A stretch of 64,000 nucleotides of DNA, taken from the sequence record PZ386974.1; one strand, given 5' to 3'. Below, one piece after another: positions 9,844-61,886 of the stretch; position 1 is the first letter of the stretch, and the number at the start of each line of letters is the position of its first letter. The notes beneath the pieces were generated by a model. The model ran no database searches. It was given only the letters and a program-made list of their open reading frames with translations, and had not been told where the DNA came from. This stretch comes from a phage. A program made the translations under genes and the position numbers.

Positions 9844-9867
9844 TCTTAATTGATTAAATCTTATTTT

Positions 9868-16128: not shown

Positions 16129-17643
16129 ATGACAGATATTAAAGTACATTTTCATGATTTTAGCCATGTAAGAATTGAATGCGACGAAAGCGTGTTCTAT
16201 GAATTACGCGACTTTTTTAGCTTTGAAGCCGATGGGTACAAATTCAACCCGCGTTACAAATATGGGAACTGGGATGGTAGAATTCGACTTTTAGATTACA
16301 ATCGTTTGTTACCATATGGACTTGTAGGACAAATAAAAAAGTTCTGTAACAATATGAGTTATTCTGTATGGATTGACCCTAAAATCTTTGAGACTGAAGA
16401 CCTTACCAGGGAAGATTTTGACGCATGGCTTTCTAAACAAGAAATTTATTCTGGCAACGCCAAAATTGAACCACATTGGTATCAAAAAGATGCAGTATAT
16501 GAAGGACTAGTTAATCGTCGTCGAATTTTAAACCTTCCGACATCAGCAGGTAAATCACTAATCCAAGCACTTTTAGCTCGGTATTATCTAGAGAACTATG
16601 AAGGTAAAATTCTCATTATCGTCCCTACAACGGCATTGACAACTCAGATGGCTAATGATTTTGTTGATTATCGCTTGTTTAGTCATTCGATGATTAAGAA
16701 AATTGGCGGTGGTGCTGATAAAGCGGACAAATCTAAAAACGACGCTCCAATTATTGTTGGCACATGGCAAACGGTAGTTAAGCAGCCTAAAGAATGGTTC
16801 TCTCAGTTCGGTATGATGATGAACGACGAATGCCACTTAGCAACAGGCAAAAGTATTTCTTCAATCATCTCAGGATTAAATAATTGCATGTTTAAATTCG
16901 GTTTATCCGGCTCATTAAGAGACGGAAAAGCCAATGTAATGCAGTATGTAGGCATGTTCGGCGAAATCTTCCGTCCTGTTAGCACGTCTAAATTAATGGA
17001 AGATGGACAGGTAACTGAGCTTAAGATTAATAGTATTTTCCTTCGTTATCCGGACGAATTCACCGTTAAATTAAAAGGTAAAACATACCAAGAAGAAGTT
17101 AAAATTATTACCGGACTAAAACGTCGTACAAAGTGGATTGCTCAACTTTCGGTCAAATTGGCTAAGAAAGACGAGAACGCCTTTGTAATGTTTAAACACG
17201 TTACACACGGTAAAGAAATATTTGAAGCTATTAAAGAGCTTGGATACGAAAAAGTTTATTACGTATCAGGTGAAGTTGATACTGAAACACGTAACGCGCT
17301 TAAAGTCATGGCAGAAAATGGTAAAGGCATTATTATTGTCGCATCATATGGAGTATTCTCTACTGGTATTTCAGTCAAGAATCTTCATCATGTTATTTTC
17401 GCCCATGGTGTTAAATCAAAAATTATCGTACTTCAAACAGTAGGTCGTGTGCTTCGTAAGCATGGTTCTAAAGCTGTTGCTACAGTTTGGGATCTCATCG
17501 ATGACGCAGGTGTAAAACCTAAATCATTAAATACTAAAAAGAAGTATACTCATCTTAATTACTTGTTAAAACACGGTATTGATCGTATCCAGCGTTACGC
17601 TGATGAGAAATTTAACTATGTAATGAAAACAATTAATTTATAA
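16129..17643 (+). CDS. uvsW: UvsW DNA/RNA-DNA helicase
   Basis: 504-aa ORF; SF2 helicase motifs (PTSAGKS Walker A, DECH box). Confidence 0.93.
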   Translation: MTDIKVHFHDFSHVRIECDESVFYELRDFFSFEADGYKFNPRYKYGNWDGRIRLLDYNRLLPYGLVGQIKKFCNNMSYSVWIDPKIFETEDLTREDFDAWLSKQEIYSGNAKIEPHWYQKDAVYEGLVNRRRILNLPTSAGKSLIQALLARYYLENYEGKILIIVPTTALTTQMANDFVDYRLFSHSMIKKIGGGADKADKSKNDAPIIVGTWQTVVKQPKEWFSQFGMMMNDECHLATGKSISSIISGLNNCMFKFGLSGSLRDGKANVMQYVGMFGEIFRPVSTSKLMEDGQVTELKINSIFLRYPDEFTVKLKGKTYQEEVKIITGLKRRTKWIAQLSVKLAKKDENAFVMFKHVTHGKEIFEAIKELGYEKVYYVSGEVDTETRNALKVMAENGKGIIIVASYGVFSTGISVKNLHHVIFAHGVKSKIIVLQTVGRVLRKHGSKAVATVWDLIDDAGVKPKSLNTKKKYTHLNYLLKHGIDRIQRYADEKFNYVMKTINL

Positions 17644-48992: not shown

Positions 48993-49010
48993 GGGAGACC
49001 GAAGTCTCCC
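48993..49010 (-). terminator. terminator GGGAGAC-ttcg-GTCTCCC + TTTTGAG after gene 32
   Basis: same hairpin as after genes 23 and 35, here on the minus strand. Confidence 0.6.
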
Positions 49011-57318: not shown

Positions 57319-57343
57319 GGGAGACTTCGGTCTCCCATTTTTG
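57319..57343 (+). terminator. terminator GGGAGAC-ttcg-GTCTCCC + T-run after gene 35
   Basis: identical 25-mer to 9868-9892. Confidence 0.6.
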
Positions 57344-57351
57344 TATAAATA
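57344..57351 (+). promoter_or_regulatory. T4-type late promoter TATAAATA for gene 36
   Basis: exact motif immediately after the terminator. Confidence 0.6.
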
Positions 57352-57375
57352 TGGTATACATATAAGGAGACAACT

Positions 57376-58041
57376 ATGGCCGATTTAAAAGCTGGTAGTA
57401 CAACTGGCGGTGCTGTCATATGGCATCAAGGTAATTTCCCTTTAATGCCAGCAGGTGATGACGTCCTGTATAAAACGTTTAAACTCTATTCAGAATATAA
57501 TAAACCACAAGCTGCTGATAACGATTTCGTTTCTAAAGCTAATGGTGGTACGTATGCCGCTCGAGTAACATTTAATAATGGTGTGCAAGTACCTTATGCC
57601 GTAAATAACACAAATCAAAGTGGTATTTATCCTGGCAATGGCGATGCTGCTACTTTTGATACAGCAAATATTGATATTGTTTCATGGTATGGCATTGGTT
57701 TTAAATCATCACAAGGATCTGCAGGTAGAACTGTTGTTGTTAACACTCGTACTGGTGATATCAGCACTAAAGGTGGTATTTATGCAACTGGTCCTGTCCG
57801 TTCTAATGCTACTGCTCCGGTTGCAGCAAATGATCTCACAAGAAAAGATTATGTTGATGGACGAATAAATATTGTTACGGATAACGCAAATTCCCGTGTA
57901 TTGCGTAAAGGCGATACCATGACTGGTACTTTAACAGCACCAAACTTTTTCTCACAGAATCCGGCGTCTGAGGCTAATCATGTTCCTCGTTTCGACCAGA
58001 TTGTAATTAAAGATTCTGTTCAAGATTTCGGCTATTATTAA
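57376..58041 (+). CDS. 36: long tail fibre distal connector gp36
   Basis: 221 aa, same length as T4 gp36. Confidence 0.9.
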
Positions 58042-58049
58042 GAGGACTT

Positions 58050-61000
58050 ATGGCTACATTAAAACAGATACAATTTAAAAGAAGCAAAGTAGCAGGAGTT
58101 AATCCTACTGCAGCACAATTAGCCGAAGGCGAATTAGCGATAAACTTAAAAGATCGAACTCTTTTTACTAAAGATGACCTCGGTAATATTATTAGCCTAG
58201 GCTTTGCTAAGGGTGGGGATATTAACGGTAATGTAACTCAAAATGGTGATTATTTACAAAACGGCACATTTAACCTCAATGGAAATCAGTTTGTTTATGC
58301 AGGAAAATACATTGAATTTTTACCTAAAACCACTGGAAATGGCGCTTGGGCTAACCAACATTCGAATAAAGCCCCTATCTTTACAGATTTGAGTTCAACT
58401 ACTTCTATTTCAGAATACCACCCTTTGATTAAACAACGCTATAAAGATGGAACTTTTTCTGCTGGTACATTAGTAAACGAAGGTAGTTTTAAATTCCATT
58501 ATATTGATGAAACCGGGACTTCAAAATACTGGACTTTTAATCGAAACGGTAATTTTCAAGTTGATTCTGGAAGTTTATTAGTATCTAATGGATATTTAGT
58601 TACTCAAAGTAATATTGAAACTAAAGCTGGTTCTTTAATTGGTCCTAAAGTTATTACCAAAAATATCAATGTGAGCACTAAATCTTGGGGCACTAATATT
58701 GATACTGCATATGATTTAGTTTCATTACCGACTTGGCACTATACTCCAACCGAAACAGATTTGGATACTAATGGTATAAACTACCTTCGTAAATTCCGCG
58801 GACATGTTTCTTCTGCTATTTTCCATGAAGTTGCTGATGCTCGTTCAGGTAAACCACAGAATATTTCGTATTGGACGGGACGTAATGCTGAAGTTTATCA
58901 ATGGTCTTATACCACAGATGGGCGTATGTCTGTTGCTAATTCGATAGGTATAGGTCTTGCTGATGTTGGTGACCAAGGACGTTATCCATTGGTTTCGTTT
59001 GGTAAAGGTATTGCAATTGGTGACAATGATACTGGTATTAAATGGGTTCGTGACGGGGTTATCGATTTAGTTGCGAATGGTATTTCTGCCGGCACTATTC
59101 TTAATAACGGCATTAACAGTACTAAAAAATTGATGGTTGGTTATAGTCGAGATTCTGGTTCTACTTGGGATTACCCAAATAACAACCAAGCAATGTTTAC
59201 TGCGCGTACCGATGTTGATGGTAATAATAACGGTGACGGTCAGACTCATATTGGTTATAGCAGCAATGCCAAGATGTATCACTATTTCCGTGGCACTGGT
59301 CGTATGTCCGTTAGTATGGGCGATGGACTTCTTGTTGAGCCTGGCATTTTAGATATTAAAACTGGTTCAAATTCGTTAAATTTGCGTGCTGATGGTACCA
59401 TCGCTTCCGTTCAAACGTTAAAACTTAATAATGGATTATATTTTAATGGCGATGGAACTAATGCTTCTCTAGTTTTTAAAGCAGCTTCAGGTATTGATGG
59501 CACTAAGCAAATCATGTGGGAAGGCGGTACTCGAGCAGGTCAGAATAAGAGTTATGTAACGGCTAAAGCATGGGGTAATTCATTTAATGCCACTGGTGAT
59601 AAATCTCGTGAAACTGTATTTGAAGTTAGTGACGGGCATGGATACCATTTTTATTCTCAACGTGTAGCTCCTGCGCCTGGTTCTACCGTCGGACCTATTC
59701 AATTTCGAGTTAATGGTGGTTTATTAACTTCAGGTAGTATTGTTACTTCTGGTTCTATTACAACTGAATCTTCTTTAAGTGTTAATAATGGCATGTCAGT
59801 AAATGGACAAGCTAAATTCGGTGGAACTGCTGATGCATTAAGAATTTGGAATGCTGAATACGGTGCTATTTTCCGTCGTTCAGAGGCGGCATTGCATATT
59901 ATTCCAACTCCTAAAGATGCAGGTGAATCTGGCGGAATAAGTAATCTTCGCCCATTAAGTATCAGCCTTAATAATGGTATGGTGCAAATGCGTCATTCTG
60001 TCACGTTAGGTGACGATGGTGCTGGCGGTAATATGATTACAGTGGACAATGATAACAAACTTGTTGTTGTTACTAGTAATAGTCGCATTTCTCCTAATTT
60101 CAGAATGCAGATAGGTCAGTCGGCATACATTGATGCAGAATGTACTGATAGAGCACGTCCGGCCGGAGCGGGTTCTTTTGCTTCCCAAAATAATGAAAAT
60201 GTACGTGCGCCGTTCTATATGAATATTGATAGAACTGATACTAGTACATATGTTCCTATTTTGAAACAACGATATGTTCAAGGAAATAGCTGTTATTCTT
60301 TAGGAACTCTAATTAATGGTGGTAACTTTAGAGTTCATTATCATGAAGGTGGTGATAATGATTCGACGGGCCCTTTAATTAAGGACTTCGGGTGGGAATT
60401 CAATAGAACCGGTGATTTTATTTCCCCTGGTAAATTAGGCGCTGGTACGGTTCGTATTGGTACTGACGGTAACATCACAGGTGGTTCTGGTAATTTTGCC
60501 AACTTAAATAGTACAATTGAATCACTTAAAACTGATATTGTCTCAAGTTATCCAATTGGTGCTCCGATTCCATGGCCTACTGATACACCTCCTGAAGGTT
60601 ATGCCATAATGGAAGGTCAAACATTTGATGCTGGCTTGTATCCTAAGTTAGCTGCGGTGTATCCTTCCGGCTCTCTGCCTGATATGCGTGGTCAAACTAT
60701 CAAGGGTAAACCATCTGGGCGTGCTGTATTGAGTACAGAAGCAGACGGTGTTAAGTCACATAGCCATAGTGCAAGTGCATCAAGCACAGATTTGGGTACT
60801 AAGACCACTTCTAGTTTTGATTACGGTAGCAAAACGACTTCAAGCTTTGATTATGGTACTAAGACCAGTAATACCACTGGCAACCATAACCATACAGTGA
60901 GTGGTAATACTAGTTCCGCAGGAGCTCACCACCACGCGCGTTCAGGTCCTCAGGTACAAGGCGGCATACCCACTAGCGTATTCTATGATGGATACAATAG

Positions 61001-61304
61001 TGCTGGTCCAAACGGCAACGCTAAATTCACTGCAACCGTGAGCGGTGCTACTGCATCGTCGAATATGGCCAAAACTTCTTCAGACGGTGCCCACACCCAT
61101 AGTTGGTCAGGAACTACTAGCTCTACGGGTAACCACGCGCATACTGTAGGTATCGGTGCCCATAGCCATTCGGTCGGTATTGGTGCTCATACCCACACGG
61201 TAGCTATTGGTTCGCACGGTCATACTATCACTGTAAATAGTACAGGAAATACAGAAAACACAGTTAAAAACGTTGCTTTTAACTATATCGTTCGTTTAGC
61301 ATAA
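58050..61304 (+). CDS. 37: long tail fibre distal subunit / receptor-binding protein gp37
   Basis: 1084 aa; C-terminal His-box (HxH) repeats and terminal ...NYIVRLA as in T4 gp37. Confidence 0.93.
60795..60854 (+). repeat. tandem 30-bp (10-codon) repeat [10 protein letters not shown] x2 in gp37 tip region
   Basis: two adjacent units with conserved peptide but many synonymous differences; T4 has a single copy by recall. Confidence 0.6.
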
Positions 61305-61310
61305 GGAGAA

Positions 61311-61330
61311 GGGACCTCAGTCCCTTTTTA
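61311..61330 (+). terminator. hairpin GGGAC-ctca-GTCCC + T-run between genes 37 and 38
   Basis: lies between the gene 38 SD-like GGAG (61305-61308) and its ATG (61335). Confidence 0.5.
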
Positions 61331-61334
61331 TAAT

Positions 61335-61886
61335 ATGAAACTCTATCATTATTATTTTGACACTAAAGAATTTTACAAAGAAGAAAATTATAAACCATTA
61401 AAAGGCGTAGGATTTCCGGCTCATTCGACACCAAAAAAACCTTTAGACCCTAAAGAAGGCTATGCTGTTATATTTGATGAACGCGAACAAGAATGGGTAT
61501 ATGTTGAAGACCATCGTGGAAAAACGGTATGGACTTATGATAAGCAAAAAATTGTTATTGACACTCCAGGTGCTCTTCAAAATGTTACTACAGAAGAACC
61601 TGGTGAATTTGACATTTGGACCGACGACGGGTGGAAGGAAGATGAAGCATATAAACGTGTAGTTCAACGTGATAAGAAAATTCATGAACTCTATAAATTA
61701 TTCAGTGTTTTAAGTTCTCTTATTGATGCAGAGGTTGCTAATAGAGAAGAAAAACGAAAATTTAAAGAGCTCAAAAAATTCTTTGCCCTTTTAGAAAAAC
61801 ATGAACATCTTGGCGGCGAATTCCCTAAATTCCCTGACCTTGAAAGCAAATCACTTGTTAAACGAATTATAAATATCTTTAAGTAA
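61335..61886 (+). CDS. 38: tail fibre assembly chaperone gp38 (T4-type)
   Basis: 183 aa; MKLYHYYFDTKEFYKEENYKP... matches T4 gp38. Confidence 0.93.
   Translation: MKLYHYYFDTKEFYKEENYKPLKGVGFPAHSTPKKPLDPKEGYAVIFDEREQEWVYVEDHRGKTVWTYDKQKIVIDTPGALQNVTTEEPGEFDIWTDDGWKEDEAYKRVVQRDKKIHELYKLFSVLSSLIDAEVANREEKRKFKELKKFFALLEKHEHLGGEFPKFPDLESKSLVKRIINIFK

Follow-up and report, generated by a model that had tools for sequence, protein, structure and literature searches.

An orthologue of the proposed T4 gene 38 split ribosome-binding site at the gene 37-38 junction of a Mosigvirus-like phage

The start region of gene 38 in the T-even phage DNA analysed here (record PZ386974.1; the whole 64,000-nt stretch is referred to below as the window) is an orthologue of the T4 gene 38 split ribosome-binding site (RBS), a real and conserved element that is ordinary and already known. 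A Shine-Dalgarno (SD) sequence overlying the gene 37 stop codon is separated from the gene 38 AUG by a hairpin, and we consider it probable that the UAAGGAG and the bridging hairpin together constitute the initiation site. This reading draws on the anatomy of the junction, its orthology with T4, the lack of an alternative SD or start codon, the compensatory conservation of the stem and the constrained folded spacing, all of which are seen directly in the sequences compared. The features discussed are collected in Table 1.

Table 1. Positions of the junction elements, flanking genes and related features in the window.
Feature	Position	Strand	Remarks
Gene 37 (long tail fibre distal subunit, 1084 aa)	58050..61304	+	From the ORF list; gp37 annotated in T4 and relatives
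Gene 37 stop TAA	61302-61304	+	Direct reading
Shine-Dalgarno UAAGGAG	61302..61308	+	GGAG at 61305-61308; first three bases are the gene 37 stop
Core hairpin GGGAC / CUCA / GUCCC	61311..61324	+	5 bp, 4-nt loop; pair probabilities 0.99-1.00 in a 301-nt context
Hairpin arms and loop	GGGAC 61311-61315; CTCA 61316-61319; GTCCC 61320-61324	+	
Extended predicted stem (10 bp)	61306..61329	+	A-U and G-U pairs; GAGAA with U-run
U5 run directly 3' of stem	61325..61329	+	Terminator-like look; length polymorphic (four, five or six T) in close relatives
A/U-rich single-stranded linker, 8 nt	61327..61334	+	Between base of 7-bp stem and AUG, with SD engaged
Gene 38 (T4-type tail fibre assembly chaperone, 183 aa)	61335..61886	+	ATG at 61335-61337
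Late-promoter motif TATAAATA	57344..57351	+	Upstream of gene 36; nearest upstream late promoter able to supply gene 38 mRNA
Late-promoter motif TATAAATA	61868..61875	+	Inside gene 38 3' end; serves gene t, not gene 38
Gene 25 split RBS	GAGG 19305-19302; ATG 19274-19272	-	27-nt gap; 7-bp hairpin CUCAAAG-AAUU-CUUUGAG

The last codons of gene 37 and its stop form the 5' flank of the gene 38 start element. The spacer between GGAG and the gene 38 ATG is exactly 26 nt long (61309-61334). UAAGGAG forms a duplex of -9.3 kcal/mol with the anti-SD at the 16S rRNA 3' end, to whose final seven bases it is complementary. The best 9-mer in the segment from -22 to -1 reaches only +0.7 kcal/mol by the same measure, and the 5' arm of the stem holds a weaker AAGGG (-5.0) at a distance of 17-19 nt from the ATG. 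None of the ten codons from the gene 37 TAA to the ATG is an in-frame ATG, GTG or TTG. The same start is annotated in T4, G53 and WFbE185, and the N-terminus it yields, MK(L/I)YHYYFD, is common to T4 gp38. Identification of the element confirms that gene 38 begins with the ATG at 61335, despite the lack of a nearby SD. Since the neighbouring genes 35, 36, 37 and t each have an SD (AAGAGG, AAGGAG or AAGGAGG) 4-6 nt from their ATG, gene 38 is the outlier. In the window, then, a strong SD precedes the authentic start by more than 15 nt, and there is neither a canonically spaced SD nor another in-frame start, the arrangement expected of a split RBS. A first-pass annotation, made from the sequence alone, had described this GGAG as the only SD-like element, 26 nt from the ATG, with a 5-bp hairpin in between; both placements are exact, and the duplex energies bear out the claim of uniqueness. 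The finding that would have spoken against that description, another start codon with a properly spaced SD, was looked for, and none exists in the TAA-ATG interval. We note that in the window the gene 37 TAA and the gene 38 ATG, 33 nt apart, share a frame with no stop between them; a gp37-gp38 read-through fusion was considered and rejected, because the two codons do not keep a constant frame in relatives, where the gap ranges from 26 to 31 nt.

A 16-kb segment of the window is 96.8% identical to Mosigvirus JS09-like phages, and the gene order 35, 36, 37, 38, t, asiA is that of T4. The gp38 of the window matches its G53 counterpart at 100% identity and T4 gp38 at 67.6%. T4-type records, including T4 isolates, match the window junction at 88% over 101 nt. 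The T4 junction (sequence TAAGGAGAGGGGCTTCGGCCCTTCTAAATATG), which reads TAAGGAG-A-GGGGC-TTCG-GCCC-TTCTAAAT-ATG, has the same architecture and aligns with the window junction column by column, so that the comparison with T4 suggested in the first-pass annotation indeed returns the same layout, with a spacing of 22 nt. The two junctions are orthologous. They are flanked by the same genes, 37 and the T4-type chaperone gene 38, and both have UAAGGAG over the gene 37 stop, a 5-bp GC-rich hairpin with a 4-nt loop and no proximal SD. The differences are of detail: the raw spacing is 26 nt in the window and 22 nt in T4, the stem is preceded by AA rather than one A, the fourth stem pair is A-U rather than G-C, the loop is CUCA in place of the UUCG tetraloop, and the 3' linker is UUUUUAUAAU rather than UUCUAAAU. 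Because of this linker the window has a U-run that resembles that of a terminator and can pair, through its U's, with the GAG of the SD. A search of about 200 phage records returned no identical match to the version with CUCA: over 101 nt, none of the 196-209 matching records is the same, and the best reaches 98%.

The T4 element itself has been in the literature for a long time. Structure is stated to reduce the 22-nt spacing of T4 gene 38 to 5 (PMC3014915), and a second review credits the case to Gold 1988, names such sites noncontiguous or split, and notes that hairpins of the gene 38 kind have been suggested to help initiation (PMC7297116); the split SD named for T4 gene 38 in the first-pass annotation is therefore confirmed by the literature. 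These two reviews (PMC3014915, PMC7297116) suggest a role of the stem, and no experiment on gene 38 was found in them; a review statement on destabilising mutations most plausibly refers to gene 25. Genes 37 and 38 are mentioned in PMC4281060, which has nothing on their junction.

The predicted fold of the 61-nt junction has an energy of -15.6 kcal/mol (z = -2.97), and none of 200 shuffled sequences was as stable. The stem is predicted to exceed the 5 bp first assigned to it: A61309 and A61310 pair with U61326 and U61325, and a weaker extension pairs G61306-A61307-G61308 with U61329-U61327. Positions 61306-61308 then have a probability of being unpaired of 0.01-0.08, and three of the four GGAG bases are predicted to be covered in the free mRNA. 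This masking of the GAG in the lineage of the window would by itself be inhibitory and speaks against the split-RBS explanation. The extension is worth about 4 kcal/mol (-13.4 versus -9.2), which is below the energy of the SD duplex. When the spacer is folded alone, with the SD left free, it has an energy of -9.2 kcal/mol and leaves 8 nt unpaired in the window, so that folding would, as had been supposed from the sequence, bring GGAG and ATG within normal spacing. A stable hairpin is thus predicted to lie wholly within the SD-AUG spacer and to leave a folded distance that should be functional. With the parameters used, the CUCA loop is predicted to cost less than 1 kcal/mol. No Rfam family reached its gathering score anywhere in the window, and the matches near the junction were chance matches with E above 0.2.

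How the junction has been conserved was followed in 32 related loci, which together with the window gave 19 distinct haplotypes; the records belong to Tequatrovirus, Mosigvirus, Gaprivervirus and Dhakavirus. An IMG/VR search with gp38 had returned 2 loci only, a metagenome scan with the gene 37 3' end 3 loci only, and a 16-mer pattern scan of viral contigs 10 loci, 8 of them chance matches in unrelated contexts; because these scans yielded so few loci, the diversity was gathered record by record from the phage collection. The sequence UAAGGAGA is invariant in all 19 haplotypes, in a setting where synonymous sites of the last gene 37 codons vary. Standard pairs occupy every one of the 93 scorable stem cells (100%; 19 haplotypes times 5 pairs, minus 2 cells set aside for an alignment gap), and the pairing falls to 32-72% once the 3' partner is shifted by one, two or three columns. 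The fourth stem pair (61314-61321) covaries, being G-C in 9 haplotypes, A-U in 7, C-G in 1 and G-U in 1, and in a shuffle control 0 of 500 trials reached either the observed covariation score or the observed percentage paired. The sequences point to a stem maintained by compensatory change, a conclusion which rests on one covarying pair and few independent events among closely related and partly recombinant sequences. Three of the four loop columns are variable, with eight loops in all (UUCG, UUCU, CUCA, UUAU, UUUG, UUAG, UUCA, GUUA). Across the haplotypes the raw SD-AUG spacing is 22-27 nt, and the unpaired remainder of the folded spacer is 6-10 nt, mostly 7-9; by this comparison it is the folded spacing that is kept constant, and not the raw one. 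That the SD is fixed, the stem under selection, the loop mostly free to vary and the folded distance constrained agrees with what an SD-bridging hairpin predicts.

Within this set the Mosigvirus-type junctions form a recognisable variant, with AA before the stem, an A-U fourth pair and a run of 4-6 U's followed by AUAAU; G53 and phage 55 carry the G-U intermediate at the fourth pair. The loop of the window differs from the UUCG of its closest relatives at two positions. The T-run has four T's in PNJ-6, five in the window and six in 308Ecol101PP and E. coli O157 typing phage 3, which shifts the SD-AUG spacing from 25 to 27 nt, and one nucleotide either way is therefore apparently tolerated. Three junctions are mosaic. 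In slur08 a T4-type pre-stem segment and GGGGC/GCCCC hairpin are joined to a Mosigvirus-type UUUUUAUAAU linker and gene 38 5' end, and in JQD51 and ZQ3 a T4-type junction precedes a mostly Mosigvirus-type gp38 that is 93-95% identical to that of the window. Their sequences suggest recombination within or beside the conserved junction.

We propose the following course of events for the split RBS. Genes 36, 37 and 38 would be co-transcribed from the late promoter upstream of gene 36, and on that mRNA the sole usable SD for gene 38 would be the UAAGGAG over the gene 37 stop, which precedes the AUG by 26 nt. Between the two, a stretch of 14-18 nt would fold into a stable hairpin. Pairing of the 30S anti-SD with UAAGGAG might then displace the weak G-U and A-U pairs by which the stem reaches over the SD, while the hairpin itself stays folded, so that about 8 single-stranded A/U-rich nucleotides and the base of the helix would separate the SD from the AUG. 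Such a folded distance would lie within the range over which an SD can position a start codon in the P site. That gene 38 initiation requires the stem, or is enhanced by it, we infer from the proposal made for T4 gene 38 and from the experiments on T4 gene 25.

The gene 25 site, at the 26-25 junction of T4, is the case in which the same principle, a hairpin between a distant SD and the AUG, has experimental support, in the form of mutations, DMS probing and lacZ fusions (PMC3014915). The work is that of Nivinskas et al. 1999 and Malys and Nivinskas 2009, and the raw spacing is given as 27 nt (PMC3014915); for T4 a folded spacing of 11 nt has been reported. The sequence is unrelated to that of gene 38, with GAGG rather than UAAGGAG as SD and a stem that is longer and A/U-rich. 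The window has a gene 25 site of this kind as well, and its spacing equals the T4 figure in PMC3014915. The E. coli thrS and rpmE initiation regions are likewise noncontiguous and interrupted by a stem-loop (PMC7297116). Their hairpin, however, is upstream of a normally spaced SD and is a protein operator, whereas the gene 38 hairpin of the window is between SD and AUG, with no binding protein indicated.

The transcription context limits the functions that the hairpin could have. On the + strand the exact TATAAATA is absent between 57344 and 61868. As candidates for a promoter of gene 38 itself, we considered the 400 nt upstream, which hold no TATAAATA and only a one-mismatch TGTAAATA at 61232, and the TATAAT at 61329-61334 as a sigma-70 -10 element; the latter is an A/T-rich coincidence, and a transcript from there would lack the gene 38 start. 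Both were rejected. Having no late promoter of its own, gene 38 would be translated from the polycistronic 36-37-38 message. The gene 35-36 junction is built otherwise: at 57319-57351 (+), just past the gene 35 stop, a hairpin GGGAGAC-TTCG-GTCTCCC is followed by ATTTTTG and immediately by TATAAATA (57344), a terminator-then-promoter arrangement, whereas no promoter comes after the hairpin of the 37-38 junction.

The alternative that survives best is that the hairpin is a partial intrinsic terminator or attenuator after gene 37, which lowers gene 38 relative to gene 37 mRNA; it could coexist with the split-SD role, and we regard it as possible, if rather doubtful. A conserved stem is as much expected of a terminator, or of an RNA-stability hairpin, as of a split RBS, and in this respect weakens the case for the latter. 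The window has the look of an intrinsic terminator, with a GC-rich stem of 5-7 bp, a 4-nt loop and five consecutive U's immediately after it. At the homologous site ARNOLD calls are present in several Mosigvirus records: the same hairpin is annotated as an ARNOLD putative terminator in G53 and WFbE185 (-11.2 and -11.8), and terminator features also lie under the match in NBG1, MM02, G2469 and KAW3E185. One may also suppose that the assembly chaperone gp38 is plausibly needed in smaller amounts than the structural gp37. The hairpin is not at the end of a transcription unit, however, its stem is short for a strong terminator, and the U-tract is not conserved although the stem and the SD are: T4-type junctions have UUCU (UUCUAAAU or UUCUGAAU), ESCO47 has UUUAUAAUA, TH58 has UUUAAUU, and others have UUUA. 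A consensus terminator scan did not list the junction hairpin, probably because the stem extension consumes the T-run, and we do not count this omission against termination. T4 needs gp38 to assemble its tail fibres. Since the interval from 57344 to 61868 holds no late promoter, gene 38 would be silenced if termination were efficient; its mRNA has to come from read-through of the hairpin, so that termination can be partial at most, and efficient termination after gene 37 is excluded by this logic. What stands of the earlier suggestion that the hairpin and its T-run terminate gene 37 transcripts is thus partial termination, which is possible in the Mosigvirus lineage, where the ARNOLD calls favour it; it is at best an addition specific to that lineage, given the missing T-run of the T4-type junctions and the read-through that gene 38 needs.

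Let us assume, nevertheless, that both functions meet in the Mosigvirus lineage. The ancestral split RBS might there have become a two-level valve, in which the run of 5-6 U's acts as a partial terminator that sets the gene 37/38 mRNA ratio, and the same U's in read-through transcripts pair with the GAG of the SD and throttle gene 38 initiation for as long as the lower stem has not been opened, whether by a 30S subunit or by a ribosome that ends translation at the UAA. We offer this scenario as speculation that is more likely wrong than right by a good deal. If it were true, the T-run length (four, five or six T's) and the loss of UUCG in the window phage would be tuning knobs.

Translational coupling, in which ribosomes ending gene 37 restart at the AUG 30 nt downstream and the hairpin is incidental or limits de novo entry, would leave the hairpin without a geometric role and so competes with the split-RBS explanation. 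The geometry invites it, with the stop embedded in the SD (UAAGGAG) in 19 of 19 haplotypes, a stop-start gap of only 26-31 nt and the two genes on one transcript. Simple reinitiation, however, needs neither an invariant 7-nt SD nor a covarying stem, and relatives do not keep the gene 37 stop and the gene 38 start in a fixed frame (the gap may be 26, 27, 28, 29, 30 or 31 nt). As the full explanation we think coupling unlikely; termination-reinitiation from the overlapping UAA may contribute to gene 38 initiation.

An RNA-stability or processing hairpin of the very stable C(UUCG)G class, which shields the upstream gene 37 mRNA against 3' exonucleases and plays no specific part in initiating gene 38, appears to us quite improbable. 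C(UUCG)G hairpins are reportedly common between T4 cistrons (Tuerk et al. 1988), the hairpin considered here is of the C(UUCG)G kind in most relatives, and the window holds at least 10 others, with 4-8 bp stems, several at gene ends, e.g. 57319-57336 after gene 35. We list them at 9867, 17641, 34619 and 57319 on the + strand and at 49010, 42667, 33990, 33051, 28729 and 13243 on the - strand; at 17641 the hairpin (TAAGGGCTTCGGCCCTTA) has GGAGATAAAA directly after it and so lies just upstream of an SD-like sequence. The junction hairpin of the window, however, has C(CUCA)G, and with CUCA in the window and eight loops among the relatives an extra-stable tetraloop is not the feature under selection. 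Protection of gene 37 mRNA would also leave unexplained the missing proximal SD, the invariant UAAGGAG and the folded spacing of 6-10 nt despite a varying raw spacing. That the hairpin is a functionless chance inverted repeat, short as a 5-bp stem is and common as such repeats are in any genome, is hardly credible given its z of -2.97 with 0 of 200 shuffles folding as well, and a stem that compensatory changes have preserved in four genera, without a single unpaired cell.

Two annotated records illustrate how gene finders mishandle start regions of this kind. In E. coli O157 typing phage 3 (L031, KP869101.1; positions 149-167 of the locus), a loop mutation to TTAT makes an in-frame ATG inside the hairpin, 9 nt past GGAG and 18 nt upstream of the usual start, and gene 38 is annotated from it, with 570 nt rather than 552. 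In this natural variant the split RBS may face competition from a start at normal spacing. In phage 55 (L028, OQ599310.1; positions 150-152 of the locus), an automated 3-nt ribosome_binding_site has been placed in the 3' arm of the hairpin.

Beyond correct annotation, the identification of the split RBS in the window has little significance. The comparative data lend modest support to the old proposal, made for gene 38, that a hairpin can bridge an SD and its start codon, and on the terminator-like variant it could be tested cheaply whether a single hairpin is able to act in the attenuation of transcription as well as in the initiation of translation.
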